Assembly (NCBI GenBank): GCA_039630545.1
Contig: JBCNUU010000001.1
Coordinates: forward strand, 64,001 to 128,000
Source of the DNA: Endomicrobiia bacterium
GTDB taxonomy: Bacteria; Elusimicrobiota; Endomicrobiia; DTEH01
Direction: 5' to 3'
Length of the DNA stretch: 64,000 nucleotides
The position numbers and the translations under genes were made by a program. The notes beneath the pieces were generated by a model that was given only the letters and a program-made list of their open reading frames with translations, made no database searches and was not told the DNA's origin. Positions 47,117 to 64,000 of the stretch are shown here, one piece after another (position 1 is the stretch's first letter; the number at the start of each line of letters is the position of its first letter).

Positions 47117-47208
47117 AAAATTTGACATAATGTAAAAAATTTTTGTTAAAAAAGTTTAATTTTTAAATTTATTTTTAGCAAAAAAATTGCATCCTCCACC
47201 ACTATGGG

Positions 47209-47922
47209 ATGGGAAAAACAAAATTTTTAATATTTTTTCTGCCACTGTTTATTAGTATTATATATGGTGGAATTATATGTGACAGATGTGGGATTGAAAA
47301 TCCTGATGAGAATATGTTCTGTCAAGATTGTGGTGCGAGGTTAGTCAAATCTAAATCAACAATCTTTCATGATGAAAAGCCAGCTTCTCAAAATCAAGAA
47401 AAAATTTGTCTCTCCTGTAAAACAAAAAATTTAATTTCTGCTAAATTCTGTCAAAATTGTGGTGTAAAATTATCAGAAATTTCATATAAAAAAGAGCAGT
47501 CTTTAAAGTTCACAAATATAGATGCTTCAAAAAAAACAGGGGCTATTGTTTTTTCTATGCTGTTCCCAGGAGCAGGACACATCTATTTAGGTCATAAGCA
47601 AGAAAAAATAAAAGGGATAATTCTTGCCTCTGCATCTGGGGGTTTGATTTTAAGTAGCATCTTAATGTGGAGTTATGCCGAAGCAAGATATAAAGAATAT
47701 GAAGACACCAAAGATGAGTTTGCCTATGAAGATTATTCATCAAGTATAGATATTGTAAACTTTTTGCTTGTGACACTTGCTGGTGTATGGGTTTATAATG
47801 TAGTAGACATCTTCATTACTACTTCAAAAGTTGGCAAATTTTCACATTTTGGTAAGGATTTTGAAATTTCAATAAATTTTTCGTCTAAGAAGTTTGAAGT
47901 ATGTTTTGCTAAAAAATTTTAA
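47209..47922 (+). CDS. Double zinc-ribbon membrane protein
   Basis: Signal-like N-terminus, two CxxC...FCxxCG units, SMLFPGAGHIYLG and TM segments. Confidence 0.7.
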   Translation: MGKTKFLIFFLPLFISIIYGGIICDRCGIENPDENMFCQDCGARLVKSKSTIFHDEKPASQNQEKICLSCKTKNLISAKFCQNCGVKLSEISYKKEQSLKFTNIDASKKTGAIVFSMLFPGAGHIYLGHKQEKIKGIILASASGGLILSSILMWSYAEARYKEYEDTKDEFAYEDYSSSIDIVNFLLVTLAGVWVYNVVDIFITTSKVGKFSHFGKDFEISINFSSKKFEVCFAKKF

Positions 47923-47949: not shown

Positions 47950-49188
47950 ATGAAGCATAAAATAATAAAAATAGCTACAGCAATACTGGTTGTTGTGTTG
48001 TTTTTTAGCTGTAGCCAAAGAAAAACTGCTCCATCGAGTGCACAAACCCAAACATACTCATTAAATGTGATTATTAACCCTCCCGGTGCAGGAACAGTTA
48101 CACTTAATCCTTCCGGACCCACATACAACGCAGGAACAGTTGTAACACTTACAGCCACCCCACACAGTGGATATGTGTTTTCTAGTTGGGCTGGAGATTT
48201 AACCGGGACAACAAATCCTGCTACTATTACTATGAACTCAAACAAAACTGTAGTAGCTAACTTTACTCAAACCGGAAGTGGCGGTGGTGGCAGTGGTGGT
48301 GGCAGTGGTGGTGGCAGCGGTGGTGGCGGCGGTACTACTACTACTTATACTCTTAATGTATTAATTTCTCCACAAGGAGCGGGAGCAGTTACCTTAAATC
48401 CTGCAGGGGGGACGTATCCTGCTGGGACTCAAGTTACACTTACAGCAACTCCTTATTCAGGTTATATATTTTCATCTTGGTCAGGTGACCTAACAGGAAC
48501 TTCAAATCCTGTAACAATTATTATGAACTCTAATAAATCTGTAACAGCTGTTTTCACTGCCTCTGGTGGTGGCAGTGGCGGTGGCGGTGGTGGTGGCGGC
48601 GGTGGTGGTGCTGATACTGCAAAATATAATTTTGAGACTACTGCTCAAGGTTGGCAGGCACAAACTTGGAGGGATTCTCAAGGAATTACTGCTGTAGCAA
48701 GAGATACATCAAAAGCAAAAAATGGAGTGGCAAGCTTAAGGTGTACGGTAAATATACAGGGAGGAGATGAAACAGTTTTACCTAACACAAAAGGTGAAGC
48801 ATGGGTAGATATGCAAAATAATCGCCCTTCTGGAGTTACTACTGTGCCTGTAAATTTATCTAATGCAACTGTTTCTGTATGGGTATTCTTACCAGATGAA
48901 GCAGCAGGAGATCCACAAAAACCAAATGGTATTCAGATTTTCTTTAAAGATAGCAATTGGAAAAATAGATATAGTTCTTGGAAAAACATAGGTAATCCAC
49001 CTTATGGACTTGAAACGAATACTTGGGTGCAGATTACGATTGATTGTGCTACTGAACAGTGGGCATATGATGAAGCAGGATTTGATATGACTAAAGTTAG
49101 AGCAGTTGGTGTAAAAATTGGAACTGGTGGTGGCTCAACAGCTACATTTAATGGCTACATCTGGATTGATTCTTTTGATTGGCAGTAA
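47950..49188 (+). CDS. Lipoprotein: 2 divergent InlB B-type repeats plus C-terminal CBM-like domain
   Basis: Lipobox LFFSC; two repeats (TYxLxVxxxP...GYVFxxWxGD...MNSNKxVxAxF); Gly-rich linkers; Trp-rich YNFE...GW...WIDS beta-sandwich. Confidence 0.8.
   Translation: MKHKIIKIATAILVVVLFFSCSQRKTAPSSAQTQTYSLNVIINPPGAGTVTLNPSGPTYNAGTVVTLTATPHSGYVFSSWAGDLTGTTNPATITMNSNKTVVANFTQTGSGGGGSGGGSGGGSGGGGGTTTTYTLNVLISPQGAGAVTLNPAGGTYPAGTQVTLTATPYSGYIFSSWSGDLTGTSNPVTIIMNSNKSVTAVFTASGGGSGGGGGGGGGGGADTAKYNFETTAQGWQAQTWRDSQGITAVARDTSKAKNGVASLRCTVNIQGGDETVLPNTKGEAWVDMQNNRPSGVTTVPVNLSNATVSVWVFLPDEAAGDPQKPNGIQIFFKDSNWKNRYSSWKNIGNPPYGLETNTWVQITIDCATEQWAYDEAGFDMTKVRAVGVKIGTGGGSTATFNGYIWIDSFDWQ
48274..48333 (+). 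repeat. GC-rich tandem repeat encoding a (GGGS)n linker
   Basis: About 3-4 copies of GGTGGTGGCAGY; a second poly-Gly tract lies at 48565-48609. Confidence 0.85.
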
Positions 49189-49202
49189 TTTTTGTGTTGA
49201 AA

Positions 49203-49246
49203 AGAGGGGGTACTCTTTTAATGAAGCGAGAGTGCCCCCTCTCTTT
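49203..49246 (+). terminator. GC-rich stem-loop (terminator or stabilising hairpin)
   Basis: AGAGGGGGTACTCT (49203-49216) pairs with AGAGTGCCCCCTCT (49229-49242) with one G-U pair; only a short U tract follows. Confidence 0.7.
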
Positions 49247-49266
49247 AAATTGTATAAATTTTAATT

Positions 49267-49345
49267 TCAGTTTCATCTTTTAAAAAGGAGAGCTATTTTA
49301 AATCTTATATTAGAAAGATAGCTCCTTTTTAATAGATGAAATTGA
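49267..49345 (+). promoter_or_regulatory. Long imperfect inverted repeat in the 5' leader of the 49390 gene
   Basis: TCAGTTTCATCTTTTAAAAAGGAG(AG)CTATTTT pairs with AAGATAGCTCCTTTTTAATAGATGAAATTGA, arms of about 31-33 nt. Confidence 0.7.
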
Positions 49346-49389
49346 TATAAATTTAAAATTTTAATGATCAAAAAAGGAGAAGCAAATTT

Positions 49390-51399
49390 ATGAAGAAATT
49401 GTTTATTTTCTTTCTAACTGTAAATTTTATATTATTTAATTTCTTAAGTTGTGCTAAAAAATCAAAATCACCAGTAACTACATCTACAACCACTTACACG
49501 TTAGTTGTGGTATGTAATCCTCAGACTGGCGGTGAGGTAGTATTAAATCCTCCAGGTGGAACATATAATGCTGGTACAGTTGTTACTATTGCTGCTTCTG
49601 CAAAAAGTGGCTATGTTTTTAGCGGATGGAGTGGTGATTTGACAGGTACACAAAATCCTGTTACTGTTTTGATGGATAGAAACAAAACAATAGTAGCTAA
49701 TTTTACACAACAAAGTACAACTGCTTATTATACACTTACAGTTAATATCTCTCCAGCTGCAGCAGGAGTAGTTGTACCTTCAAGTGGTACATATGCTGCT
49801 GGGACACAACTTACTTTAACAGCCACTGCTTCAAGCGGGTATGTGTTTAGTCACTGGAGTGGAGATTTAACAGGCACAACAAATCCTGCACAAATCACTA
49901 TGGATTCAAACAAAGTAATTACAGCTAATTTTACACAGCAGCAAGTAAGCACCTACACTCTTACTGTAAACATAAATCCTTTAGGTGGTGGTACTGTACT
50001 ATTTAATCCTCCTGGTGGTACATATCCTGCTGGAACACAAGTGACACTTACAGCTAAGGCAAATCCTGGTTATGTGTTTAATAACTGGAGTGGTGATGCA
50101 AGTGGGAATTCTGCCTCTGTGAGTATCGTGATGGATTCGAATAAAACTGTTACGGCAAACTTTACTCAGACAGGTGGTGGAGGTGGAACGACTTATACTC
50201 TTCTTGTTAGTATAGAGCCCTCTGAAGCAGGAACGGTTTCTTTGAATCCAGCTGGTGGAGTGTATACGGCTGGAACTGTGGTGACACTTCAGGCACACCC
50301 TGAAAGTGGTTGGGTATTTGAAGGATGGAGTGGTAATCTTTCTGGCAACCAAAATCCAACTACTATTACAATGAATTCAAACAAAGTAGTTACAGCTAAT
50401 TTTACCAAACAGCAGACCACCTATACGCTTACTGTTAACATAAATCCAGATGGTGGTGGAAATGTTACGTTGAATCCTGCTGGTGGCACATATACTGCTG
50501 GAACGCAGGTGACCTTAACAGCTACTGCTTCAAGTGGGTATGTATTTAGCCACTGGAGTGGAGATTTAACAGGAACAACAAACCATGCAACGATAACAAT
50601 GAACTCAAACAAAGTAGTTACAGCTAATTTTACCCAACAGCAACAGCCCACCTATACACTTACTGTTAACATAAATCCAGCTGGTGGTGGAAATGTTACA
50701 CTGGATCCTGCTGGTGGTACATATACTGCTGGACAGGTAGTAATATTAACGGCTACTCCTTCAAGTGGATATCAGTTTTTAAACTGGACAATAGGACAAA
50801 ATACAGTAACCTCAAACCCAACTACAGTTACAATGGATTCTAACAAAACAGTAACAGCTAATTTTGAACAAGTAGGTTCTGATACAGCAAGGTATAATTT
50901 TGAAACATCTGTTCAGGGTTGGGTCCATCAGACATATACTGATTCTCAAGCAATTACAGCGGTATCAAGAGATACATCAAAAGCAAGATATGGTCAGGCA
51001 AGTTTAAGATGTACAGTTAACCTTCAAGGAGGACATGCTAACTATTCTAAAGGTGAGACATTTGTAGACCTTCAAACGCCGACTGATTTAAGTAATAAAA
51101 TAGTTACAGTATGGGTATGGGTCCCTTCTGAAACAGTTGCTACACCATCTAACGGTATCCAGGTATTTTTTAAAGACTCAAATTGGAATAGTAAATATAG
51201 TAGCTGGCGCAATATAGGTGGTGATATTACTCCTGGAGTATGGAATCAGATCTCAGTAAATACAGCTAATGAAGTATGGGGTTGGGATAATGGTTGTAAT
51301 TTGTCCCAGGTAAGGTTGGTTGGAGTGAAGATAGGGACCGGAGATGGTTCAACTTTTACATTTAATGGTTATATTTGGATTGATTCTGTAAACTGGTAA
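49390..51399 (+). CDS. Lipoprotein: 6 divergent InlB B-type repeats plus C-terminal CBM-like domain
   Basis: Lipobox NFLSC; six ~75-aa repeats; C-terminal domain clearly paralogous to that of 47950..49188. Confidence 0.8.
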   Translation: MKKLFIFFLTVNFILFNFLSCAKKSKSPVTTSTTTYTLVVVCNPQTGGEVVLNPPGGTYNAGTVVTIAASAKSGYVFSGWSGDLTGTQNPVTVLMDRNKTIVANFTQQSTTAYYTLTVNISPAAAGVVVPSSGTYAAGTQLTLTATASSGYVFSHWSGDLTGTTNPAQITMDSNKVITANFTQQQVSTYTLTVNINPLGGGTVLFNPPGGTYPAGTQVTLTAKANPGYVFNNWSGDASGNSASVSIVMDSNKTVTANFTQTGGGGGTTYTLLVSIEPSEAGTVSLNPAGGVYTAGTVVTLQAHPESGWVFEGWSGNLSGNQNPTTITMNSNKVVTANFTKQQTTYTLTVNINPDGGGNVTLNPAGGTYTAGTQVTLTATASSGYVFSHWSGDLTGTTNHATITMNSNKVVTANFTQQQQPTYTLTVNINPAGGGNVTLDPAGGTYTAGQVVILTATPSSGYQFLNWTIGQNTVTSNPTTVTMDSNKTVTANFEQVGSDTARYNFETSVQGWVHQTYTDSQAITAVSRDTSKARYGQASLRCTVNLQGGHANYSKGETFVDLQTPTDLSNKIVTVWVWVPSETVATPSNGIQVFFKDSNWNSKYSSWRNIGGDITPGVWNQISVNTANEVWGWDNGCNLSQVRLVGVKIGTGDGSTFTFNGYIWIDSVNW

Positions 51400-51448
51400 T
51401 ATCGTTTTTCTTAGAACAAATTAATTTAGAAAGGAGCCCACCTTATCA

Positions 51449-52354
51449 ATGAGAGGTTATTGCAGATTTAAGCCCTTGTTGCTTTATATTTTTTTATTGT
51501 CATTATCTTTTTATGTTTTTTGTAGCGGATTTAGTGGATTAAAACTGTTTTTTGGAGCAAGAACCACTGGGTTAGGTGAAAATTTATGTGGTTTATCAGA
51601 GGAAGTAGAAAATATTTACCACAATCCTGCCGGTCTTGTGGGAATAAATCCTTTTGAATTTAAAATTATGTATTCAAATTGGGTAGCAGATATAAATAGA
51701 AGTGATTTGATTTTAGCAAAATCTTTTAAAAATAAATCCGTGGTTGCTTTTTCTTTTAACTATATGTGGACAAGACTTGAAAGTGAATATAATAGTAGTG
51801 ATTATTTTTCTTTAATACACACTATAGCATACGCAAGAAAATTAAATAAAATTTATTTTGGATTAGGCACAACAATAGTATATGAATCTTTTTCTTTAGA
51901 AGAGGGTTATAATCTAGCTGGAGGTTTAGATTTAGGTGTACTTATCAGAAAACAAAGAGCTGCTTTAGGCTTTAGTGTAAAACAAATAGGAAAAAGTTTT
52001 GTTTATATGGGAGAAGACTCAGAGATTTTGCCTTTTAATTTAAACTGTGGAGTAAGTTATATAATGCCTAACAATTTTGTTGTAGTTGGTAACATAAAAT
52101 ACAATTTGGATGGTTTAATTTCATTCCATACAGGATTAGAAGTTCCTCTATATAGAGGAATAAAAGAAGAAATAGCTATAAGAGCAGGCAATGTATTAAA
52201 ATTACCATCCCTTAGTGATTTGCCTATAATTTCAAATTTTAGATTAGGTTTTGGATTTAGAAAAGAAGGTTTAAAGATAGATTATTGTTTGGTGCCTCTT
52301 GGAGAAAATATAGGTTTTTTTCATTATATATCTTTAGGATTTATTTTTTATTAA
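51449..52354 (+). CDS. PorV/PorQ-family outer-membrane beta-barrel
   Basis: GARTTGLGE...IYHNPAGL N-terminal motif (FadL/PorV fold), DLGVL, P..LNCG and IDY...LG...HYISLG C-terminus. Confidence 0.75.
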   Translation: MRGYCRFKPLLLYIFLLSLSFYVFCSGFSGLKLFFGARTTGLGENLCGLSEEVENIYHNPAGLVGINPFEFKIMYSNWVADINRSDLILAKSFKNKSVVAFSFNYMWTRLESEYNSSDYFSLIHTIAYARKLNKIYFGLGTTIVYESFSLEEGYNLAGGLDLGVLIRKQRAALGFSVKQIGKSFVYMGEDSEILPFNLNCGVSYIMPNNFVVVGNIKYNLDGLISFHTGLEVPLYRGIKEEIAIRAGNVLKLPSLSDLPIISNFRLGFGFRKEGLKIDYCLVPLGENIGFFHYISLGFIFY

Positions 52355-52358
52355 AGTT

Positions 52359-54569
52359 ATGAAGAAAATATTTTTTATAACAACCTTAATAATACTTAAT
52401 TCCAACATTTTTTTGTTTTCTCAACTTAAACCTAACCAGCTTAGAGTAAATGGAAGAAATTTATTAGATGGAAATGGACAAGTGATTCGTTTGGTTGGAA
52501 TAAATCATGGGCATGCATGGTATAGAGGATATTTAGGTTCTGCTCTTCAGGGTATAAAAAGTTGGGGTGCAAATTCTGTAAGAGTAGTTCTTTCTTGCGG
52601 TTATAGATGGACAAAAATTCCAGCTCATGAAGTTTCTGCAATAATAAGTGAAGCAAGAAATTTAGGTTTTAAAGCAATAGTTTTAGAAGTACATGATACA
52701 ACAGGTTATGGAGAAGACAGTGCTGCATGTGATCTACAAACAGCAGTCAACTACTGGATTGAGATAAAGAATGTTTTAATTGGACACGAGGATTTTGTAA
52801 TAATAAATATAGGCAATGAACCATGGGGTAACCTCAACACCAGCGGCTGGGTGAATGCTACCAAAAATGCAATATCTGCTTTAAGAAATGCCGGGTTTAC
52901 TCATGTTATAATGGTAGACGCACCTTGTTGGGGTCAGGATTGGAATAACACTATGAGATATAATGCCACAAATGTGTTGAGTGCTGATACTTTGAATAAT
53001 ACAATTCTTTCGGTTCATATGTATGGTGTCTACAATACAGCTTCAAAAGTTCAGTATTATTTAAGTTATTACTATAATAATAATTTACCACTATGCATAG
53101 GCGAATTTGGACATTATCACTCTGATGGAGATCCTGATGAACAAGCAATAGTTAATTATGCAAGACAGTACGGAATGAGTATATTTGGATGGTCCTGGTG
53201 TGGAAACAGCGGAGGAGTCGAGTATTTAGATATGGTATATAATTGGAATCCGAATAGTCCTACTAATTGGGGAAGCTGGTATAAAAATAATGCATTAAGT
53301 GATCTTCCTCAAACTTATACTATTTCTATCAACATAAATCCTCAGAACTCAGGAAGTGTCACTTTATCTCCACCAGGTGGAACATATACAGCAGGCACTC
53401 AAGTTACACTTACAGCGCAGGCTAACAGTGGATATGTATTTAGCAGCTGGTCAGGAGATATAACTGGCAGTCAAAACCCGGCCACTGTTGTTATGAACTC
53501 AAATAAAAATATAACTGCTAATTTTATTCAATCAACTGTTAACACTTACAGGTTATCTTTAAGTATTTCTCCTTCCGGTTCAGGTGTGGTTTATCTAAAC
53601 CCTTCAGGTGGGTTATATATAGCAGGAACTCAGGTGACTCTTACAGCACAACCTAACAGTGGTTATGTATTTAACAGCTGGAGTGGGGATCTCTCTGGTA
53701 GTCAGAATCCCGCAAGTATTGTTATGGACTCCAACAAAAGTATTACAGCAAACTTTGTACAATCAGGTTCAACCAGTATTACTTATACTTTAAATATAAC
53801 TATTTCACCACAACAAGCCGGAAAAGTAAGTGTGAATCCGGTTGGAGGTGTGTATCAAGAAAATACACAGGTTGAAATTACTGCCTTTTCAAACAATGGA
53901 TATGTGTTTTCTGGATGGAGTGGTGATATAACAACTAATGAAAATCCTTTAAAAATCACTATGAATTCTAACAAAAACATAACAGCTAATTTTTCCTCTA
54001 TAAGTAGCACAACTTACACAGTTACAGTTATAATTTCACCTCAAAATGCTGGATTTGTGTACTTGAATCCAATAGGGGGTGTATATACAGCCGGGACTTT
54101 ACTTACACTTGTTGCCTATCCTCAAGATGAGTATGAATTTTTAAACTGGTCAGGAGATATTTTCTCAGAGGCCCAAACTGTAAGTATTGTGGTTGATTCT
54201 AATAAAGTAATACAAGCAAATTTTATTTTAAAATCTTCAACAGCTCCTTTTTCAGATCAAAAAGAATTTTTAGATTCTATAATTATTCTTCCTCCTTCTG
54301 AAAACCCTTTTTATTTAAACAAAACCAACAGCTATGTTAAACTAAAATATTATCTTAAACAGTCAATGTCTGTAAGGCTGAAAGTATATGATGTGTCTCT
54401 AAATTTAGTAAGGATCACAGAATACCAACACAATCAAGCTGGAGAAAATTATTTCATATTTGATGCTAAAGATGACGAAGGATATCTTTTGCCAGCAGGA
54501 CTTTATTTGTATCAAATTGAATCTCATAGTTCAAAAAGTAGTTTTGGTAAAATTTTTATAGTAAGGTGA
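52359..54569 (+). CDS. GH5 (subfamily 8-like) endo-beta-1,4-mannanase with 4 InlB-type repeats and a T9SS/FlgD-like C-terminal domain
   Basis: GINHGHAWY, GANSVRVVLS, LEVHDTTGYGE, NIGNEP (acid/base), SVHMY, IGEFG (nucleophile) and WSWCGN, as in Thermobifida/Caldicellulosiruptor-type mannanases. Confidence 0.88.
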   Translation: MKKIFFITTLIILNSNIFLFSQLKPNQLRVNGRNLLDGNGQVIRLVGINHGHAWYRGYLGSALQGIKSWGANSVRVVLSCGYRWTKIPAHEVSAIISEARNLGFKAIVLEVHDTTGYGEDSAACDLQTAVNYWIEIKNVLIGHEDFVIINIGNEPWGNLNTSGWVNATKNAISALRNAGFTHVIMVDAPCWGQDWNNTMRYNATNVLSADTLNNTILSVHMYGVYNTASKVQYYLSYYYNNNLPLCIGEFGHYHSDGDPDEQAIVNYARQYGMSIFGWSWCGNSGGVEYLDMVYNWNPNSPTNWGSWYKNNALSDLPQTYTISININPQNSGSVTLSPPGGTYTAGTQVTLTAQANSGYVFSSWSGDITGSQNPATVVMNSNKNITANFIQSTVNTYRLSLSISPSGSGVVYLNPSGGLYIAGTQVTLTAQPNSGYVFNSWSGDLSGSQNPASIVMDSNKSITANFVQSGSTSITYTLNITISPQQAGKVSVNPVGGVYQENTQVEITAFSNNGYVFSGWSGDITTNENPLKITMNSNKNITANFSSISSTTYTVTVIISPQNAGFVYLNPIGGVYTAGTLLTLVAYPQDEYEFLNWSGDIFSEAQTVSIVVDSNKVIQANFILKSSTAPFSDQKEFLDSIIILPPSENPFYLNKTNSYVKLKYYLKQSMSVRLKVYDVSLNLVRITEYQHNQAGENYFIFDAKDDEGYLLPAGLYLYQIESHSSKSSFGKIFIVR

Positions 54570-56260
54570 AAATTCTTTTTGTTATATTTTTATCTTTTCT
54601 TGTTTATTTAAACACATTAAAAAATGATTTTGTTTGGGATGATACATCAATTATTGTAAATAACAAATGGATTAGAACTCCCTCAAATTTTTTTAAATTT
54701 TTTATATTGAAAGAAACTATTTCCGAAGATACAAGAACAAAGCCATACATATATAGACCACTTGTAACCTTTAGTTATTCTTTAGATTATTCAGTCTGGA
54801 GACTTTCTTCGTTTGGTTATCATTTAAGCAATATAATTTTTCATACAGTTACGGTTATATTTTTATACATACTTACAGATTTGATTTTAAATAACAAAAA
54901 AATTTCTTTATTTAGTAGTGTAATTTTTGCAGTGCATCCTGTGCATACAGAGGCAGTAAGCTGGATAAAAGGCAGAGCTGATATTTTGGCTTGTATGTTT
55001 TGTATGTTATCTTTTATATTCTACATATTGTATTTCATTAGAAATGAAAGATTTATTTATTACTTTTTGTCCTTATTGTTCTTTATTTTTGGATTATTTT
55101 CAAAAGAATCAGCAGTTGCTTTAGTTGGTATTATAATTGCATATGATATAATTTTTAAAAAGAAATTTCTCTTTAAGAGTTATATTTTGTTTATAATAGT
55201 TTTATTTCTTTACATTATTTTAAGAAAAAGTGTATTAGGAAGCAATCTACCTTATAGATGGTGGGCAGGAAGTCAGTATTATACTTTTTTAACTGCTATG
55301 AAAGTTCTAGTTGAGTATTTCAGGTTGTTGGTTTTTCCTATAAATTTATGTGCTGATTATGTCGTTGAGATTTCGTTTAATGTATTTGACTTAAAAGTAA
55401 TTTTTTCAATTCTATTTTTAATTTTTTTAATTACTATTTCATTTATTTCTATTAAAAGATTTTCAATTTTTTCTTTTTGCATTTTTTTTATCTTGATTTC
55501 ATTACTACCAGTTGCAAATATTATTTTCCCGATTGAAGTATTACTGGCAGAAAGATTTTTATATATGCCTTCTGTTGGCATGTGTTTATTTTTTGGCTGG
55601 TTAGTGTATAGAATTTTAACAAGAAACAAAACATTGGGATATATAGTTTTTGTTTTAATTGTGCTTCCTTATTCAATTTTAACCTGTAATCGCAACAAAG
55701 ACTGGAAAGATGAATTTAACCTGTGGTCTAAGACAGCAAAACAATTTCCTGATAACTTTAGAGCACACAACAACTTAGGTATGGAGTATGAAAAATCAGG
55801 AAATTTAGAAAAAGCTCTTTACCACTACAAAATAGCATCAAACCTCACACCTAATCTGTCATGGTTACACAATGATAAGAACCAGACATATGCAAGAGTA
55901 TATAATAATATTGGAAATGTTTATTTCAAACAAAAAAATTTTAACACAGCAATTGAATATTATAAAAAAGCTATTGATTTAGATCCTTTATATTCTTCAC
56001 CTTACTTTAACTTAGGCTTATTATATAGAAATAAAGGTTTACTGGATTTAGCTATCTATTACTACAAAAAAGCAATAGAACTTAATCCGTATGTTGCAGA
56101 CTACTATAACAATCTTGGAGTGGTGTATGCATTAAAGGATGATTTTAAAGAAGCTATTATTCAATATGAAAAAGCAGTGGAGTTGTCTTCAGATGAAGAT
56201 TTTAAAAAACAAGTGCTTAAAAATATAGAGATAGCAAAAAATTTTTTGAGGAGAAAATGA
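54566..56260 (+). CDS. TMTC-like protein O-mannosyltransferase (GT-C plus TPR)
   Basis: FVWDD, YRPL, GYHLSNIIFH, FAVHPVHTEAVSWIKGRADIL, SKES, AERFLYMPSVG and RNKDW, followed by TPRs; GTG start overlaps the upstream stop. Confidence 0.8.
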   Translation: MKILFVIFLSFLVYLNTLKNDFVWDDTSIIVNNKWIRTPSNFFKFFILKETISEDTRTKPYIYRPLVTFSYSLDYSVWRLSSFGYHLSNIIFHTVTVIFLYILTDLILNNKKISLFSSVIFAVHPVHTEAVSWIKGRADILACMFCMLSFIFYILYFIRNERFIYYFLSLLFFIFGLFSKESAVALVGIIIAYDIIFKKKFLFKSYILFIIVLFLYIILRKSVLGSNLPYRWWAGSQYYTFLTAMKVLVEYFRLLVFPINLCADYVVEISFNVFDLKVIFSILFLIFLITISFISIKRFSIFSFCIFFILISLLPVANIIFPIEVLLAERFLYMPSVGMCLFFGWLVYRILTRNKTLGYIVFVLIVLPYSILTCNRNKDWKDEFNLWSKTAKQFPDNFRAHNNLGMEYEKSGNLEKALYHYKIASNLTPNLSWLHNDKNQTYARVYNNIGNVYFKQKNFNTAIEYYKKAIDLDPLYSSPYFNLGLLYRNKGLLDLAIYYYKKAIELNPYVADYYNNLGVVYALKDDFKEAIIQYEKAVELSSDEDFKKQVLKNIEIAKNFLRRK

Positions 56261-58230
56261 GAGGTTTTTTAATAAGTTTTATTTTTTATACAAATGTATG
56301 TTTTTGTTTACCTACTATTAATACAGTGCTGCCTGAAAAAAACAGAGTAGGTAAATATGAAAAATTTGAATTAGTGGTTGAAATTTCGGCAACATACACA
56401 AATCCATATGATCCTCACCAAGTAGACCTATCGTGTGTGTTTTTTTCTCCAAGTAATAAAGAATGGAGAATATTTGGTTTTTATGACGGGACAAAGTGGA
56501 AAATAAGATTTACTCCAAATGAAACTGGAGTTTGGAGCTACAGAGTTTTTTTAAAAGATCAAACAGGACAAACTGAATCTAATCTTTTAAGCTTTGAATG
56601 CATGGAGTCTGATTCCCATGGTTGGATTAAAGTAGCACCTAACAAAAGATATCTAATGTATGACGATAATACTCCGTTTTATGGAGTTGGATTTTGTAGA
56701 GCGTGGAATTCTCTAAGTGTCCCGTTTGAAACATTAAAAGAGTTTGGAGTTAACATGATATTAATCTGGGTTGGTCCTCCATGGGTTGGGATGATTGAAA
56801 ATACTTCAAAAGGTATTGGTATTTATGATCAACAGATATGTTATACAATAGAAAACTATATTCAGCAAGCAGAAAAAAATAATATCCATATAATACTCTG
56901 TTTGTGGCCTCACGATGCTTTAAGAATTCCAGGACAGCCATGGCCATCAGGAAACTGGGCGAAAAATGCCTACAGTCTTATTACAACTCCAGAAGGTTTT
57001 TATTCAGATACATCTACAGTATGGGATTATCAACAAAAACTTTATAGATACATTATTGCCAGATGGGGATATAGCACATCTTTAGCTATATGGAATATAA
57101 TAGTGGAGATCAATGGAACCACAGGCTACTCTATAAATCCTTCTGCTGCTGAAGAATGGTGTAAAAGAGTGCATAATTTTTTCAAACAAAACGATCCTTA
57201 CAAAAAACCTACATGTGGTTCTAAATCAGGCGATCAGTTTTGGAATAACGGATACAATATTTTTGATATTGCAGAGATTCATACATATAAGGATAAAAAT
57301 AATGCTTCAGAAGTAGCAGATACTATTATAACCTATACAAGACAAATGTGGGCAGGTTTTTTAAAACCAAACTTCGTTGGAGAATTTGGGACAGATGATC
57401 AAAATTTACAGCCATTTCATTTACACAATGCTATCTGGGCAGGTTTGTCTGCAGGAGCAGCTATAACTCCGTTAGATTGGAATGACGGTGGTAGTTGGGG
57501 AGATATTACTGATGATATGCTTCAACATATGAAAATTTTTTCAAACTTTATAAAAGAAATTGATTTTGTGAATGATGATTTTATACCTGCTAATGTTTCT
57601 GTTGTTCCTTCTGGTGAGGTTTTTGGAATGAAAGGGAATAAGTGTTGTTTTGGCTGGATAAGGAAAACAGATGACACTATTGAGAGAGTATTAACCATTT
57701 CAGGAATGACAGATGGCGTATATGAAATGAAGTTTTATGATACATATACAGGAGATTTTTTTTATATTACTTTAGCAACTTCAACTTATGGATTTTTATC
57801 AACAAAAATCCCAGCTATTTCTAAAACTGATTTTGCTTTTAAAGGGTATCTTAAATTTTCTAATAATCAATCTTCGGGTAACAAAGAATTCACCGTGGAA
57901 GGAGAATTACTTAAAATTTTACCATTAGAGAAAAATCCTGTAAAATTTTATAAAGATAAAGAAGTAAAAATAAGATTTCTTGTTAATATTCAGATTCCTT
58001 CTAAAGTGAAAGTTACTATTTATGATATAAACATGAATTTAGTCAAAATTCTTACAAGTTCTTCGGATGGTTGGTTAAAAGTTTTTTCTCCATATCAGGA
58101 ATTTACATGGGATTTAAAAGACGAAAATGGTAGAGAAGTTGACGGTGGTCTTTATATTTACAAAATAGAAGCAATAAATGATTATAAAGTTAAAAGTAGT
58201 AAATTAAATAAAATTATGGTAATAAAATAA
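56257..58230 (+). CDS. DUF5060 plus GH-A clan (GH5-like) glycoside hydrolase with T9SS/FlgD-like C-terminal domain
   Basis: KYEKFEL...NPYDP...WKIRFTP, RYIIARWGYS, WNIIVEING, FVGEFG, and C-terminal WDLKDENG...GLYIYKI. Confidence 0.75.
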   Translation: MRGFLISFIFYTNVCFCLPTINTVLPEKNRVGKYEKFELVVEISATYTNPYDPHQVDLSCVFFSPSNKEWRIFGFYDGTKWKIRFTPNETGVWSYRVFLKDQTGQTESNLLSFECMESDSHGWIKVAPNKRYLMYDDNTPFYGVGFCRAWNSLSVPFETLKEFGVNMILIWVGPPWVGMIENTSKGIGIYDQQICYTIENYIQQAEKNNIHIILCLWPHDALRIPGQPWPSGNWAKNAYSLITTPEGFYSDTSTVWDYQQKLYRYIIARWGYSTSLAIWNIIVEINGTTGYSINPSAAEEWCKRVHNFFKQNDPYKKPTCGSKSGDQFWNNGYNIFDIAEIHTYKDKNNASEVADTIITYTRQMWAGFLKPNFVGEFGTDDQNLQPFHLHNAIWAGLSAGAAITPLDWNDGGSWGDITDDMLQHMKIFSNFIKEIDFVNDDFIPANVSVVPSGEVFGMKGNKCCFGWIRKTDDTIERVLTISGMTDGVYEMKFYDTYTGDFFYITLATSTYGFLSTKIPAISKTDFAFKGYLKFSNNQSSGNKEFTVEGELLKILPLEKNPVKFYKDKEVKIRFLVNIQIPSKVKVTIYDINMNLVKILTSSSDGWLKVFSPYQEFTWDLKDENGREVDGGLYIYKIEAINDYKVKSSKLNKIMVIK

Positions 58231-58248
58231 GCTAAAAAGGAGGATGTT

Positions 58249-61200
58249 ATGAAAAGTAAAATATTAGTTTTTATAAATACAGTTTTATTTGCTTTTTTTT
58301 GTTCTGGTTATTCTAAAGATTGGTATGTGCTGGAAGATTTTGAAGGTGTAAACTACTGGTCAATAGTAAGCTGGAAAACAGCTACTAAAGCTGTAAGTAT
58401 TTCAAAAGAAATTTTCTCTGAAGGAGAAAAGGCACTTAAAGTTGATTTTGAAAATTCCGATTGGTCTGAAAAAGCACAGGTTATGATAGAGCAGTTTTTT
58501 GATTTCTCAGGAGTAGAAAAAATTTCCATGGATATTTATAATCCAAATAAAGAAACACTTCTTACTACAATGGCTTTATGTACCGGTGATAAATGGGAGT
58601 GGTATGAATCACCTGAACAAAGGTTAGTTTCTGGATGGAATAAAGAAGTCACTTTTAATTTGCGTTCTCCTAACTGGAAAGCAGAAAGAAGCGGATGGAG
58701 AAACATAATTAAAGTTGAGAACCTCAAAGATGTAAGAAGAATTACTTTAACTTTTGTTGGTGGAAGAGGTCCTGTATATATAGATAATATTAAAGTTTAT
58801 GGGGAAAAGAAAATTGATAAAATTTCACCCACAATAAAACAGATAGGTGATAAGATATTGTTTGAATCGTTTGAAGAAGATAAGACACAATGGAGTATAG
58901 CAGGATGGCGCACTCAAGCAGTGGAAGTAAAATTTAACGAAAAATGGGCTACCGATGGTAAAAAAAGTTTAGAACTTATTTTTGAAGATGTTACTGACTC
59001 TAACAAAGCATCCTACTGTATAGAGGGAGACTTCAATTGGGAGAAAGTCAACAGATTTTATATAGATGTGTTTAATCCTCTTAAAAAAAACATAAAAATA
59101 AACTTAGCTCTTTCCACAGGTGGTGGTTGGATATGGTATGAATCTCCTGACAAAGTGTTAACTCCAGGAGAAAATAAAGATATAGAATTTGACCTCAATG
59201 CGAAAAATTTTAAATGTGAAGCAACAAATTGGACTTACTCAAGTTATGTAAAACATAAGGAGAAAGTAAAAAGAATAGCAATACAGGTTATCGCGCCTCA
59301 GGGAGAGACACTTAGTGGCTCAGTAAGTATTGACAACTTAAGAATCACAGAAGGAGAACCTTTAGTGATACCTGTAGAAATAAAACCACCTAAATATCCT
59401 GAGGTAGTAAATCCTTCCAGATACAGTATACCCAAAATCAAATCGATTACTTCAAATTTAGAAATGGTGGGTCAATATGAAAAGTTTGAACTTACATTAG
59501 AAATTGATTCTTATTTTGAAAATCCATATAATCCTAATGAAGTGCTATTAACTGGGATTTTTATTTCTCCGGATGGAAAAACATATAGAGTTCCTGGATT
59601 TTATTACGAAGATTTTAGAGAAGAAACTGGTCTTTTAAAACCAACTGGTAAGAAGTACTGGAAGATTCGTTTTTCACCGAATAAAATTGGTAGCTGGGAC
59701 TATTATGTGGAATTTAAAAATCCAGCAGGAAAAATTGAAAGTAAAAGACAAAGTTTTGAGTGCGTAAGTTCAAGAAATAAAGGAATAATCGTAGTTTCTG
59801 AAAGTAAAAATTACTTTAAATTTATCACTGGAGGAACATATTTCCCTTTAGGACAGAATGTTTGCTGGGTGACAGCTTCTGATAATTGGAAATACTCTGA
59901 TTATTTGAGAAAACTTTCGGAAACAGGCCAGAACTGGACTAGACTATGGAACTGTCCGTGGGGTTTTATAATAGAATGGGGAGAACCAAGAGGACAGGGG
60001 CTTGGAAGATATAATCAAAAAGATAGTTTTGAGTTTGACAGAATAATAGAACTTGCAGAAAAATTAGGAATTTATATCCAGTTTTGTTTGGATTATCATG
60101 GAGCTTTTGATGAAGAAATAACATGGGAGCAAAATGCTTATAACTTTGTAAATGGAGGACCATGTAAAAAACCAATTGATTTCTTTAAAGATGAAACAGC
60201 AAAAGAGTATTATAAAAGGAGGTTAAGATATGTAGTAGCAAGATGGGGATATAGCTGTGCTATCATGGCGTGGGAATTTTTAAATGAAGCAGACCTAATT
60301 TCTGATTATGATGAAAATATATTAAGAGAATGGCACAAAGAGATGGCTACATACCTTAAAGAAATAGATTACAATGGCCATTTAATTACGACTTCTTTTG
60401 CAAGAGCTTTTGCCGGAGATACTATTTTTAAACTTCCTGAAATAAGCTATACACAAACACATATGTATACAGATGAGGTAATAAATGGAATCTATAGTAT
60501 CGCCATAGAAAAAAGAAACAGATACAAAAAACCTCATTTCTTTGGTGAAATAGGAGGAGCAATTACAGATGCCTCAGTTGAAGCAAAAGATAAAAAAGGT
60601 ATACTTCTGCATGATACTCTCTGGGCTTCTGTGATGAGTTTAAACTCAGGTACAGCTATGTACTGGTGGTGGGACGGTCATATAAAACCAAATAATCTTT
60701 ATTATCATTATGCTGCTGTTTCAAAGTTTTTAAAAGGTATAGATTACGATTCTAAAAACTTCTCTTTAGTAGAAGCAGAATCTATTGGAGAAGCCGACTA
60801 TACAGATTTAGTTTATTCTCCGCCATTAGATTGGGAAAAATCAATTATGTTTTCTGATATGCTTTTAATAGATAAAAGCGGTTTAGTTAAAGGGGGACTT
60901 TTATCAAGATATTTCCAGAGTCCTAAATGGCACAAAGATATGTATGTGGTTCCAACTTTTAGTGTGGAGTATCCTACAGATGGAAGTTTTTCTATTTATG
61001 TTCTTCAGTCAGCAAAAATAGGTGCTAATTTGAAAATCTATATTGATGATAAACTTATGCTTTCAGAAGAATTTCCTAAAGGAAGAAGTGATTTTAAAAT
61101 ACAAAAATCATTTTCAGTACCAGTTTCAAAAGGAAAACATATAATAAAGATAATAAATGACGGAGATGACTGGTTTAATGTTGGAAATCTTACATTTACA

Positions 61201-61500
61201 AATCTTATAAACAAATGTCAGGTAGTTGGTATAAAATCAGCTTCTGGAGATTTTATCCTTTTGTGGCTTAAAAATCCAAGATATAATGTAAAAAACTATC
61301 TTTCAGGGATTCAGCCTCCAAAAGTAAAAAATGCTAGAATCCAAATAAAAGATGTAAATGACGGAGATTATAATGTAGAGTTCTGGGATACATGGAATGG
61401 GAATATAGTTTCAAAGAAAAATTTTACAGCAACAAATAAAACATTAGTTATTCTTGTGCCGGAGTTTGACAGCGATATAGCATGTAAAATTTATAAATAA
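58249..61500 (+). CDS. Multidomain glycoside hydrolase: 2 CBM-like domains, DUF5060 and GH5-like catalytic domain
   Basis: Duplicated EDFE/ESFE...TGxxWxWYESP...IDN domains, then QYEKFEL, RYVVARWGYS, WEFLNE, FFGEIG and YWWWD. Confidence 0.78.
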   Translation: MKSKILVFINTVLFAFFCSGYSKDWYVLEDFEGVNYWSIVSWKTATKAVSISKEIFSEGEKALKVDFENSDWSEKAQVMIEQFFDFSGVEKISMDIYNPNKETLLTTMALCTGDKWEWYESPEQRLVSGWNKEVTFNLRSPNWKAERSGWRNIIKVENLKDVRRITLTFVGGRGPVYIDNIKVYGEKKIDKISPTIKQIGDKILFESFEEDKTQWSIAGWRTQAVEVKFNEKWATDGKKSLELIFEDVTDSNKASYCIEGDFNWEKVNRFYIDVFNPLKKNIKINLALSTGGGWIWYESPDKVLTPGENKDIEFDLNAKNFKCEATNWTYSSYVKHKEKVKRIAIQVIAPQGETLSGSVSIDNLRITEGEPLVIPVEIKPPKYPEVVNPSRYSIPKIKSITSNLEMVGQYEKFELTLEIDSYFENPYNPNEVLLTGIFISPDGKTYRVPGFYYEDFREETGLLKPTGKKYWKIRFSPNKIGSWDYYVEFKNPAGKIESKRQSFECVSSRNKGIIVVSESKNYFKFITGGTYFPLGQNVCWVTASDNWKYSDYLRKLSETGQNWTRLWNCPWGFIIEWGEPRGQGLGRYNQKDSFEFDRIIELAEKLGIYIQFCLDYHGAFDEEITWEQNAYNFVNGGPCKKPIDFFKDETAKEYYKRRLRYVVARWGYSCAIMAWEFLNEADLISDYDENILREWHKEMATYLKEIDYNGHLITTSFARAFAGDTIFKLPEISYTQTHMYTDEVINGIYSIAIEKRNRYKKPHFFGEIGGAITDASVEAKDKKGILLHDTLWASVMSLNSGTAMYWWWDGHIKPNNLYYHYAAVSKFLKGIDYDSKNFSLVEAESIGEADYTDLVYSPPLDWEKSIMFSDMLLIDKSGLVKGGLLSRYFQSPKWHKDMYVVPTFSVEYPTDGSFSIYVLQSAKIGANLKIYIDDKLMLSEEFPKGRSDFKIQKSFSVPVSKGKHIIKIINDGDDWFNVGNLTFTNLINKCQVVGIKSASGDFILLWLKNPRYNVKNYLSGIQPPKVKNARIQIKDVNDGDYNVEFWDTWNGNIVSKKNFTATNKTLVILVPEFDSDIACKIYK

Positions 61501-61525
61501 AACTTTAAAAAAGGAGGATAAAAAA

Positions 61526-63136
61526 ATGGACGTAACCAAAAAAATAATAAGTGTAATAGTTATATTGGTAAGTGTAACAAGCATAATGTATGCCCCTATA
61601 AGGTCTTTTGAATTTATAGGTGAAGTAAGAGCTTGGTGGTCACGTACAAACAACGCCTGGGATAAAACAGAAACTATTCTTCGTCCAGATGGTTCTGCGG
61701 AATTTGATGATGTAAATGACTTTATGTTTTCTGATACAAAATTAGGAGTAAGAGGAAGTATCTTAAGAGATGTGTTTGGAGTAATAGAAGTTGAAAAAAG
61801 AGATACTTTATGGGCAACACATAATAATTCTTTTAACGCAGAGCATTATGGGACAATCGGGGGGTATCTTGGTGATCCTAATATTCAGAATCCTACAAAC
61901 TATACTGGTTATAAAATTACGAAATCCTATATAGTATGGGATAAAATTTATGATTTGTTTTCAGTTGTTGTTGGAAGACAGTTTATTTCAGGAACAGAGT
62001 ATCCTGATCCAGAAAGAATGGATTTAGTTTTGTGTATGACAATGGATGGCTTCAGAGCTGATATTTTTTCAGAATATGGGAAAATTATGCTATTTAAGGC
62101 GAAACTAAACGAATCTACTGCTCCTCTCTATGCTCCACACGGTGGATTAGCCTGGGAGACAAAATATGAAGACAAAGATTTTGATGCTCAGGGAGTTATG
62201 GTAAAATCAGCATCTTTACTTCCAGGACATAGATTAAAAATGTACCTTTTAAATTCCATAATAAATGATCCTGCAGAAACTAATCCTGTTGGAAAAATTT
62301 TTAGTCAATACGATTTAAGGAATATTTTAGGTTTTAGAGTAGATGGAGGACTATCTTTTGGTTTGGACTACGGAGTTGAATTTGCTTATCTTTTTGGAGA
62401 GAAGTATGTTACTACTTACAGAGCACTTGATCCTGTTACATTAAATTATGTAACTAAAGATTATTATGGTTTAGCTTCAAGAAAAGCTTTTGCTTTTCAT
62501 ATTATGGCACAATACAAACGTTCAATGGGTGCACCTATTATGGAGTCGCCTACATTGCTTAAAGTATACACTAATATCCTTGGAGGTTCAGGAGATGATT
62601 CAACCACACCTGATGATGAAGGATTTATTGGTCTAAATGACGATTGGTGGACAAGAGCAAGAGGTTATGATCATCAGGGTTATGGAGAAATTTATAAAGC
62701 TAATCCCTACCAGCATAATAGATTTACTTCAGGTGATAACCCGACAGAGGTATATGATGGAAGGTATGTAGAAAAAAGTATATGTTTATATCCAGCAAGG
62801 ATAATTAATTTAGGAGCAAGATATGAATTTAGTGAAGGAGGAAAACTTCAGGGACTATATGCCGGGTTTGATTTTTATCTTTATAACCACTTAAGTCCTG
62901 ATGGAGTTATAATAACAAACGAAGATAATCAAAAAGAGCAAACGGACGATTTAGGTAAAGAAATAAATCTCCAGATTGGTTATACCTATAAATACTCTAC
63001 TTCATTCAGGTTAGTTTTAGGATGGTTTTTCCCTGGCAGAGCTTACATAAACGGAAAAGATGCTCAGACGGGCGCTGTAATTGGTGCAGATCCTGTCTCT
63101 TTAATAAAATTAGAAACAGCTGTATACTTTTATTAA
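61526..63136 (+). CDS. Outer-membrane beta-barrel (alginate-export-like), putative oligosaccharide porin
   Basis: Signal peptide, FIGEVR, VGRQ, DYGVEFAY, DLGKEINL and an aromatic C-terminus (VYFY). Confidence 0.6.
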   Translation: MDVTKKIISVIVILVSVTSIMYAPIRSFEFIGEVRAWWSRTNNAWDKTETILRPDGSAEFDDVNDFMFSDTKLGVRGSILRDVFGVIEVEKRDTLWATHNNSFNAEHYGTIGGYLGDPNIQNPTNYTGYKITKSYIVWDKIYDLFSVVVGRQFISGTEYPDPERMDLVLCMTMDGFRADIFSEYGKIMLFKAKLNESTAPLYAPHGGLAWETKYEDKDFDAQGVMVKSASLLPGHRLKMYLLNSIINDPAETNPVGKIFSQYDLRNILGFRVDGGLSFGLDYGVEFAYLFGEKYVTTYRALDPVTLNYVTKDYYGLASRKAFAFHIMAQYKRSMGAPIMESPTLLKVYTNILGGSGDDSTTPDDEGFIGLNDDWWTRARGYDHQGYGEIYKANPYQHNRFTSGDNPTEVYDGRYVEKSICLYPARIINLGARYEFSEGGKLQGLYAGFDFYLYNHLSPDGVIITNEDNQKEQTDDLGKEINLQIGYTYKYSTSFRLVLGWFFPGRAYINGKDAQTGAVIGADPVSLIKLETAVYFY

Positions 63137-63162
63137 AATTGTGTTGATTAAAGGAGGAGTTT

Positions 63163-64000
63163 ATGAAAAAACTATTTAGGCTGTTTTTTATTTTTCCATT
63201 GATATTGAGTTGTGCCAAAAAAGAACAAAAAAATGTTTTGACATTGTGGCATGTTGGTTCTGAAGAAGAAGCACAAATTATAAAAAATCTTGCTGATAAA
63301 TACTTCACACCAGAAAGTGGTATTTCTGTTGTGTGTGAGTCTGTTTCCTGGTCTGAAGCACATACAAAATATCTTACTGCCATAGCAGGAGAAGTTTTGC
63401 CTGATTTAGGAACCATGGGTTTAACCTGGGCTTCTGAATTCGGGTATAAAGGAGCAATGGTAGAACTATATGAGAGATTTCCTGCTGATGTAGAAACTCT
63501 AAAGAAAAACATATTTAAATCTATCTGGGAGTCTGCAGAACTAAAAGGTAAAGTTTATGGTATCCCTTTTGATTTAACAGTTCAACTTTTATACTATCGC
63601 TCTGATATAATTTCTAAGCCACCTCAGACATGGCAGCAGCTGACGGAAGTTTTAAAAAATCTTAATGCTCAAAATAAATCTATGATGATAGCCTGGGGTT
63701 CGCTTGATTGGATTGGTTTTTCTCCATTTTTGTGGCAGGCTGGTGGAGATTATTATAATAAGGAGGGAACAAAAAGTATAATAAACAGTGAAGAAGCAAA
63801 AACAGCTTTAAAGTTTTTTGCAGATTTATATAAAAAATATAATGTTCCACGTTCAGCAGAGAACTTCGGTGCAGGATTTCGATCAGGTGAGTATCCATTA
63901 GGAATGTGTGGTAACTGGTTAATAAATAGTTTTCCATATGAGATGCCAGAGCTTGAAGGAAAATGGTCTATAGGACTTCTGCCAAAAGGGCCTTCCGGAA
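63163..64000 (+). CDS. Sugar ABC transporter substrate-binding lipoprotein (partial, runs off the window)
   Basis: Not in the ORF track. GGAGG RBS, then MKKLFRLFFIFPLILSC lipobox, LTLWH, SWSEAHTKYLTAIAG..PD, VYGIPF, LLYYRSD and PPQTW. Confidence 0.88.
   Translation, partial: MKKLFRLFFIFPLILSCAKKEQKNVLTLWHVGSEEEAQIIKNLADKYFTPESGISVVCESVSWSEAHTKYLTAIAGEVLPDLGTMGLTWASEFGYKGAMVELYERFPADVETLKKNIFKSIWESAELKGKVYGIPFDLTVQLLYYRSDIISKPPQTWQQLTEVLKNLNAQNKSMMIAWGSLDWIGFSPFLWQAGGDYYNKEGTKSIINSEEAKTALKFFADLYKKYNVPRSAENFGAGFRSGEYPLGMCGNWLINSFPYEMPELEGKWSIGLLPKGPSG

Follow-up and report, generated by a model that had tools for sequence, protein, structure and literature searches.

A 14-gene cluster for probable beta-mannan uptake without SusC/SusD in an Elusimicrobiota genome

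How could a bacterium capture, degrade and import beta-mannan without the SusC/SusD pair found in the loci of Bacteroidota? This question is raised by a locus in the genome of an Endomicrobiia bacterium (G000; Elusimicrobiota, assembly GCA_039630545.1), of 1.6 Mb and 95.5% completeness, the DNA of which is seen in hot-spring metagenome runs of one study, with three DNA rows, two of them marked as a possible source, and no RNA row. The window is the whole stretch of 64,000 nucleotides that was analysed (G000:C1:64001-128000); from its position 47950 to its end, and on into the sequence that follows (L001, G000:C1:124001-144000), it carries a cluster of 14 genes. The cluster is real and very likely serves mannan, and it combines known parts in a way not yet described. 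These genes probably work as a beta-mannan uptake pathway without SusC/SusD, with tail-dependent export and with import by a porin and an ATP-binding cassette (ABC) transporter. The most noteworthy parts are the export core without its known motor and the barrel subfamily.

An earlier note on this stretch had described nine genes as a candidate new type of mannan utilisation system that continues past the window. Nine open reading frames (ORFs) are indeed found where it placed them, all on the + strand and the ninth extending beyond the window end, and its domain assignments were upheld by Pfam and family profile scans. The locus runs on for 4.5 kb further, with two ABC permeases, a phosphorylase of glycoside hydrolase (GH) family 130, a cupin and a MalK-type ATPase. 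The shared direction of the cluster genes says nothing by itself, since the neighbours on either side have it too: every main ORF from 39782 on, those of L001 included, is on the + strand. The genes are tightly packed, with 12 of the 13 intergenic gaps at 49 bp or less and the remaining one at 201 bp, and this packing together with the conservation of the cluster exceeds chance.

The locus has no SusC/SusD pair, as had been claimed. SusD (PF07980) gave no match at E<=0.1 in the whole genome, where the control was positive, and none in G122-G125, four genomes that come into play below, compared with nine matches in a Bacteroidota control genome. TonB-dependent receptors (PF00593; control positive in 3 of 14) are represented by two genes, on contigs C12 and C23, and by none on C1. 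The possibility that a SusC/SusD pair lies just downstream was ruled out by reading the downstream genes and by the PF00593 and PF07980 searches.

The cluster encodes instead an outer-membrane beta-barrel of 536 aa (61526..63136), predicted from a fold model and subfamily searches to be a manno-oligosaccharide porin. The model, which is of low confidence (pLDDT 52), has about 18 long strands that begin at the mature N-terminus and no plug, in agreement with the barrel proposed earlier. In structure comparison several kinds of barrel scored alike, LamB and Occ porins among them, with Z 13-15.5 and a root-mean-square deviation of 5-10. The subfamily is rare (a search of 1.84 billion proteins gave 6 clusters at E<=1e-30, and another search 4 homologues), has alginate-export-like porins as distant kin, and is a candidate for a new oligosaccharide porin family. 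It occurs in G000-G003 (4 of 61 genomes) and in G122-G125 (4 of the 26 others searched). The barrel gene adjoins that of the hydrolase B described below in seven of these eight genomes and precedes a MalK ATPase gene in the eighth (G122), and the hydrolase B copies of all eight form one branch (SH-aLRT 98) in a quick tree, for which 43 of the 91 rows with a match were chosen by locus. The sample is not blind, with G122-G125 reached via the hydrolase and four of the eight genomes belonging to one genus. Weak barrel matches in six genomes (Omnitrophota and others) were set aside; five of the neighbourhoods were read and held no matches to cluster genes.

The ABC importer is completed downstream of the window, in line with the uptake route foreseen in the earlier note. 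It comprises a sugar-binding lipoprotein of 404 aa (63163..64000, complete at L001:3163-4377; SBP_bac_1, E 1e-37), two permeases (L001:4374-5276 and 5266-6117; BPD_transp_1) and the MalK-type ATPase (L001:7445-8551; ABC_tran/OB_MalK). Between permeases and ATPase lie the GH130 phosphorylase (L001:6146-7072; Glyco_hydro_130) and a cupin of 108 aa (L001:7089-7415; PF01050, E 1.5e-8) that is like the C-terminal domain of mannose-6-phosphate isomerase and may share its activity.

How would the enzymes reach the polymer? The GH5 mannanase (736 aa, 52359..54569) carries a C-terminal export tail, as the earlier note had seen, but it is not the only enzyme to do so, since hydrolase A (657 aa) is tailed as well. 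Local PorV and tail profiles, seeded from independent family searches, gave 17 PorV-like genes in the genome and 32 proteins that share this type of C-terminal tail; a weak 33rd tail match fell on a PorV-like protein and was not counted. Of the 17 PorV-like genes, 13 have a tail gene as a neighbour, where 10,000 shuffles gave 0.65 on average and 5 at most. The last residue is K or R in 30 of the 32 tails (27% background). The PorV/PorQ-family outer-membrane barrel of the cluster (301 aa, 51449..52354) matches NF033709 at E 2.5e-23, with 83 bits versus a cut-off of 90 bits. A profile of this barrel and its relatives finds PorV (6H3I_F) as its best PDB match (E 1.4e-12), and a profile of the cluster's tails and their relatives finds the C-terminal domain of PorU (E 3.5e-7), indicating that both are homologous to type IX secretion parts, as had been supposed.

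The homologue of the type IX translocon protein SprA is a protein of 1,733 aa encoded on contig C12 (L092:5846-11047, G000:C12:74846-80047), with a weak match to the SprA family (TIGR04189, below cut-off). SprA-like matches occur in 83 of 122 genomes of the class, always below the family cut-off. A search of the PDB with the single sequence gave no match and a profile was needed; the profile of 18 homologues from the class matched SprA alone, at E 5e-33 and in three stretches. In a hand-picked set, all 10 of 10 SprA-positive genomes have PorV-family genes, whereas 11 of 14 SprA-negative members of the class have none; the exceptions to this co-occurrence are G018, G044 and G064, and also G124. 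The PorV family is very largely expanded in G123 and G124, with 47 and 48 matches. In most of the class loci that were read (L095-L114), the sprA-like gene adjoins genes that on reading of their sequence are lptF/lptG-like, and beyond it there is often a PorV-like gene with a tail-bearing M6-peptidase-like protein. The earlier note had the locus carry its own secretion adaptor, but the locus is not self-sufficient in secretion: the genome has 17 PorV-like genes in all, and the SprA homologue is encoded on another contig.

Type B cargo of type IX systems uses gene-linked carriers, the cognate PorP/SprF shuttles, according to the available part of PMC12618676. By its position, the adjacent PorV-like barrel is likely the carrier of the mannanase. 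This pairing is less sure because the tail gene lies upstream of the PorV-like gene in 11 of the 13 pairs, while here the upstream gene encodes lipoprotein 2, which has no tail.

The known motor was not found. GldM was absent from all 26 non-Bacteroidota genomes searched (5 of 5 Bacteroidota controls positive), with remote homologues not excluded by this search, and GldN likewise from all 26 (5 of 5 controls positive, 4 of them over cut-off). GldK and the PorU sortase/C25 peptidase gave no matches in a search of G000 only, made without a true positive control, and GldL was not searched. In Flavobacterium, as far as the available part of PMC10994853 describes, cargo loads on SprA-PorV without energy and the motor is needed for it to leave. 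Judging by homology, export in this organism would be like type IX secretion in its outer-membrane core and would depart from it in the motor. In the part of a 2024 paper that is available, type IX genes are described as absent outside the Fibrobacteres-Chlorobi-Bacteroidetes (FCB) group (PMC11285876), and the available text of PMC8857248 mentions the phylum Elusimicrobiota and the type IX system separately.

Some further loci of G000 touch on this machinery. On contig C6 (L093, L094), tail proteins and four PorV-like genes flank genes for a protein of 945 aa with tetratricopeptide repeats (TPRs), a MotA/ExbB protein and two ExbD-like ORFs; this ExbB/ExbD-TPR set is a candidate energiser for export. 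On C12 (L152:365-9117), the genes of a small tail-bearing protein and of a PorV-TPR barrel come before two others, one for a protein that has the middle and C-terminal domains of FliG and one for a protein of 1,603 aa. A protein of 6,690 aa ending in the same export tail is encoded at G000:C34:121050-141122, and several GH9, GH8 and GH5 enzymes also have tails.

If the tail were an ordinary Ig-like domain, the enzymes and lipoproteins would be periplasmic and the cell would scavenge, through porin and ABC transporter, manno-oligosaccharides released by others. The two tails of the window score as FlgD_ig and not as Por_Secre_tail, and FlgD ranks just behind PorU in the search with the tail profile; the failure to find GldM, GldN, GldK and the C25 peptidase points the same way. 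Moreover, a hot-spring member of the Elusimicrobia enriched on cellulose, which may or may not be close to this genus, has been proposed to bind it and not to degrade it (available part of PMC7031533). Nonetheless, SprA and PorV homologues exist, and PorV-like genes stand beside tail genes far above chance. Endo-acting enzymes of GH9, GH8 and GH5 are among the tail bearers, as are proteins that reach 6,690 aa. In a Pfam scan of 27 tail proteins that kept the best five families per protein, eight had glycosidase domains, and some tails did pass cut-offs (Por_Secre_tail in 2 of 27, CHU_C in 2 of 27). For these reasons, a cell that exports none of these enzymes is considered unlikely.

Which polymer would the exported enzymes act on? 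According to Pfam, the 736-aa protein is composed of a GH5 domain, four B-repeats and an FlgD_ig tail. It matches the beta-mannanase 1BQC of the PDB at E 6e-89 and keeps both glutamates of the catalytic motifs (E154 and E249). By this close match to solved mannanases and its two glutamates, it is assigned as a GH5 endo-beta-mannanase, which we take to be of subfamily 8 (GH5_8). The GH130 enzyme matches TM1225, UhgbMP and the beta-1,4-mannooligosaccharide phosphorylase 5AYD at E 4e-112 to 2.5e-108. All three are thus at 2.5e-108 or better, whereas mannosylglucose or beta-1,2 enzymes are at 9e-45 or weaker, with mannosylglucose phosphorylases at 5e-29 or weaker. On these matches it is of the manno-oligosaccharide phosphorylase type, presumably of subgroup 2 (GH130_2).

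Two further enzymes belong to the DUF5060 family. Hydrolase A (56257..58230), DUF5060/GH5-like, matches the PDB entry 9GMJ at E 2e-32 and has VE in place of NE in its acid/base motif, with both glutamates retained. Hydrolase B (1,083 aa, 58249..61500), also DUF5060/GH5-like and without a tail, matches 9GMJ at E 1e-92 and GH5 mannanases more weakly; its glutamates are E680 and E767, and it has two binding-module-like domains at the N-terminus. A second deposited sequence of the 9GMJ series has Q at the position of the NE glutamate that is held by 9GMJ and hydrolase B, which fits an acid/base role. The earlier note had foreseen hydrolysis in the periplasm; of the two DUF5060 enzymes, the tail-less hydrolase B is predicted to be periplasmic and hydrolase A, with its export tail, to be exported. 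Among the DUF5060 loci that were read (best 80 of 576 confirmed, from 27 of the 64 parts of the collection), 21 of the 80 have a GH130 gene within the fetched flank. In L013 (a Spirochaetes record) and L014, a tail-bearing GH113 enzyme stands in place of the GH5 mannanase, accompanied by PorV-like genes, the same binding module, the barrel and hydrolase B.

The mannanase match, the type of the GH130 enzyme and the substitution of GH113 for GH5 in other phyla all agree with the mannan substrate that had been proposed, and beta-mannan is very likely the substrate of the cluster on these homologies. Phosphomannomutase, a ROK kinase and a GMP/PMI enzyme are encoded elsewhere on C1. Queries with single sequences from the fetched loci did not find mannobiose epimerase, a second GH130, GH113 or GH2 in G000, so that the epimerase that the earlier note had proposed to look for downstream did not turn up there or in the rest of the genome. 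G000 has parallel sets of sugar genes (L158, L159 and L115-L117). One has an ABC transporter with GH94; in another, a binding protein is accompanied by genes that are GH52-like, for an FGGY kinase and isomerase-like; and there are the several tailed GH9, GH8 and GH5 enzymes. One GH9 enzyme is apparently split over two ORFs (L159:1936-5082).

The cluster starts with two lipoproteins. Both have InlB-type B-repeats and a tip with a weak Mann_GBD_bact match in Pfam. Lipoprotein 1 (412 aa, 47950..49188; PF18998 x2, PF21253 weak) has a signal with Cys, two B-repeats, Gly/Ser linkers and a C-terminal carbohydrate-binding-module (CBM) fold. Lipoprotein 2 (669 aa, 49390..51399) has six B-repeats and is tipped by the same binding module as lipoprotein 1 (61% identity). 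The search of the PDB with the single sequence of the module gave no match and a structure model was needed. This model (pLDDT 93.6 for the tip of lipoprotein 1) matches CBM folds including 2C26, 1WKY, CBM22 and CBM27-1 with mannohexaose. The matches span a Bacillus mannanase module but also binders of xylan and glucan, and the fold therefore does not fix the ligand. The tips are predicted to bind glycan at the cell surface, and the fact that the same module carries a PEP-CTERM anchor in loci of Omnitrophota favours a surface role. Ser and Thr make up 22-25% of the two lipoproteins.

The breadth of these folds leads to the question of whether the cluster serves another or wider beta-glycan (glucomannan, mixed beta-glucan or the N-glycan core), or the remodelling of a mannose-rich surface polymer of the cell itself, with the barrel as an export pore. 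UhgbMP, which prefers the N-glycan core, is as near to GH130 as the manno-oligosaccharide phosphorylase, the weak Pfam match of the barrel is Alginate_exp, and glycosyltransferase-like genes and the GMP/PMI gene lie just upstream. These upstream neighbours are, however, different in G002; two unrelated mannanase families occupy the same slot; the ABC importer with its binding protein stands in the same gene run; and cellodextrin-like and xylose-like ABC loci are separate in G000. Taken together, this makes such a substrate or role improbable.

The same architecture was sought in other genomes and found within the genus and, in part, in other phyla. The cluster recurs in three of seven genomes of the same genus, with the full gene order kept in G002 and G003 and with G001 rearranged and cut by a contig end. 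Hydrolase B is matched in 5 of 401 genomes of the phylum, four of them of this genus; G122 was found separately. Outside the phylum, a binding-module lipoprotein, PorV-like genes, a tail-bearing mannanase, the barrel and hydrolase B occur together in L013 and L014, and the binding module, the barrel and hydrolase B in L015. A loose mosaic, in which general adhesion would be the task of the lipoproteins, the PorV-like gene and the glycosyltransferase, brought together only in this genus with an ordinary ABC-GH130 operon, is very improbable in the face of these joint recurrences in L013, L014 and L015, even though strong hairpins separate lipoprotein 1 from the rest, the gene order differs in G001, the cluster is rare and TMTC-like genes stand in unrelated contexts in relatives.

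Loci of a different make-up were seen in Omnitrophota (L026, L027, L032 and L051), with GH130, ROK-like kinase, DUF5060 and GH113 genes and with binding modules anchored by PEP-CTERM. Neither SprA nor PorV was found in seven genomes with DUF5060 loci of the Omnitrophota type. By their gene content, these loci may represent a second Sus-free design for mannan.

The membrane glycosyltransferase of the cluster (564 aa, 54566..56260) matches PMT_2 above the Pfam cut-off and TMTC_DUF1736 weakly, and has TPRs and a DD motif in its first loop. The gene is the sole copy in G000, with orthologues of 48-62% identity only in the three cluster-bearing relatives and paralogues of about 30% in four others. 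It had been counted as part of the system and does track the cluster within the genus, but it is without a match in the loci L012-L015 and is hence accessory.

The gap between the two lipoprotein genes (49189..49389) contains two long hairpins (-67.3 kcal/mol, z -8.6). They may terminate transcription or stabilise the mRNA, and they may determine how much lipoprotein 1 is made relative to the rest. No Rfam match was found in this gap. In G002 and G003, a G+C inverted repeat comes after the same gene, with a different sequence. A promoter scan gave no signal (68 sites versus 74.5 expected), its best-scoring site (47770-47799) falling within the upstream gene, and the Rfam scan gave nothing but one tRNA downstream. 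A recent foreign origin is not supported, with third-position G+C of 0.16-0.26 in the 14 genes and 0.19 +/- 0.03 genome-wide; a rise in G+C at 48-54 kb tracks Gly/Thr-rich repeats.

On the upstream side, a CstA-family transporter and a zinc-ribbon membrane protein (45500-47922) precede the cluster in G000, G002 and G003. Genes for a kinase, a receiver, a GGDEF protein, a sigma-54-like protein and an extracytoplasmic function (ECF) sigma factor continue 3' of the cluster without a break, and the downstream boundary is therefore set by function and not by sequence. The earlier note had proposed to look for a regulator on this side, where kinase, receiver, GGDEF and ECF genes do follow. GGDEF genes come after both the mannan ABC cluster (L001:10494-11582) and the ABC/GH94 cluster (L158:12522-13937), a hint of control of sugar-linked attachment by cyclic di-GMP. 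Further on, L001:12731-16832 encodes the ECF sigma factor, a TPR protein with a beta-barrel-like end, a zinc-finger anti-sigma factor and an acidic proline-rich protein, a TPR-barrel layout that we take to resemble that of surface-lipoprotein translocators.

From the gene content, the homologies and the conserved neighbourhoods, which are observed, the following pathway can be proposed. The two lipoproteins would tether the polymer at the cell surface, where B-repeat stalks would carry their binding modules. The TMTC-like protein, an accessory, would likely glycosylate the Ser/Thr-rich stalks, which is a guess. The mannanase and hydrolase A would cross the outer membrane by means of their C-terminal tails through the SprA homologue of contig C12, likely riding on PorV-like barrels, with the adjacent barrel as the likely carrier of the mannanase. 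With no PorU-type sortase among the matches, they would either remain on the carrier or leave uncut. Manno-oligosaccharides would diffuse through the 536-aa barrel, be trimmed in the periplasm by hydrolase B and, as short oligomers, be taken up by the ABC transporter, after which GH130 would release mannose-1-phosphate, to be handed on by phosphomannomutase, ROK kinase and isomerase encoded in or outside the cluster. The earlier note's overall reading is thus supported for mannan, for the lack of SusC/SusD, for ABC/GH130, for the barrel and for the type IX-like parts; the novelty of porin plus ABC transporter, a secretion contained in the locus and an export tail on the mannanase alone are not supported.

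Several observations weigh against this pathway. Activity data for the DUF5060 family were not found in the literature searched, nor was a paper for the 9GMJ series. The lipoproteins have no export tail, and the mature start of lipoprotein 2 (C-A-K-K) is the same as that of the ABC binding protein, giving no direct sign of surface location. Besides the low confidence of the barrel model and the tie among many barrel families, the nearest named family of the barrel is an export pore (Alginate_exp, below the Pfam cut-off). The SprA homologue has 1,733 aa versus 2,403, matches in three stretches only, and no genome among the 122 of the class reaches the family cut-off. No motor was identified, while in Flavobacterium SprA needs GldLM power for the release of cargo (available part of PMC10994853). 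PorV-family genes also occur without a SprA match, 12 in G044 and 48 in G124. Finally, the binding protein has no close match in G123-G125 (0 of 3), where the inner-membrane step may differ.

A bolder generalisation is put forward tentatively, and we hold it with less than even confidence: that Elusimicrobiota and some Spirochaetota have a third design of polysaccharide uptake, in which a SprA-PorV-tail core works without the GldKLMN motor, each enzyme has a dedicated anchoring carrier, and a new porin family feeds a partner hydrolase and an ABC transporter. If this were true, the type IX core would exceed its known motor in age or in mobility and would be driven by another energiser, for example the ExbB/ExbD-TPR set or the FliG-domain fusion beside PorV-like genes in G000. 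A SprA homologue matched in 83 of 122 genomes of the class, alongside carriers and tailed glycosidases and with GldM and GldN not found, would make it testable whether the translocon can run on another motor. The cluster also offers a substrate hypothesis for DUF5060 hydrolases, is a source of candidate thermophilic mannanases, and would assign the degradation of polymers to a phylum that, according to the available part of PMC7031533, largely lacks the machinery for it. Locus predictors anchored on susC/susD would miss a cluster of this kind. No published description of the cluster, the barrel or this export system in Elusimicrobiota was found in the literature searched, which covers a minority of subscription journals; single PorV-like genes are probably annotated in public genomes, because family databases already hold a broad PorV/PorQ model.

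When compared with known systems, the cluster shares with the SusC/SusD loci of Bacteroidota the clustered binding lipoproteins and GH130 and, by prediction, the surface endo-enzyme and the periplasmic trimming. It differs in that a plug-less barrel replaces the TonB-dependent receptor and import is by an ABC transporter, with neither SusC nor SusD. The Bacteroidota mannan locus L045 likewise has a DUF5060 enzyme and GH130, and the same DUF5060 family with a C-terminal tail, whereas the mannobiose epimerase and mannosylglucose phosphorylase of Bacteroidota mannan loci were not found here. Mannan pathways of Bacillota and Thermotoga pair an ABC transporter with GH130, and TM1225 and 5AYD are among the structural matches of the present enzyme. 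These pathways have in common with the cluster, as predicted for it, the ABC import of manno-oligosaccharides and their cytoplasmic phosphorolysis; they differ in that they are not known to have PorV/tail export and that Bacillota lack an outer membrane. In eukaryotic TMTC protein O-mannosyltransferases, too, TPRs come after a membrane domain in which a DD motif stands early; the protein found here is bacterial and has only a weak TMTC_DUF1736 match.

The type IX system of Bacteroidota (SprA 6H3I) shares homologues of SprA, PorV and the tail, and the linkage of carrier genes to cargo genes as for type B cargo. In the present genome, which is outside the FCB group, SprA is about 670 aa shorter, GldM, GldN, GldK and PorU were not found, and there are 17 PorV-family paralogues, whereas type A cargo of Bacteroidota is routed through one PorV. 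For the import half of the pathway, the earlier note had regarded the combination of porin and ABC transporter as a new type, but a porin plus a sugar ABC importer in a two-membrane cell is already the maltose design. Indeed, the maltoporin-MalE-MalFGK2 system of E. coli, as described in the available part of PMC13543919, likewise joins a porin, which here is a prediction, to a binding protein, two permeases and a MalK-type ATPase. What sets the present cluster apart from it is that the barrel belongs to a separate and rare subfamily, that the binding protein is a lipoprotein, and that proteins predicted to capture the polymer and enzymes predicted to be exported are encoded in the same cluster.

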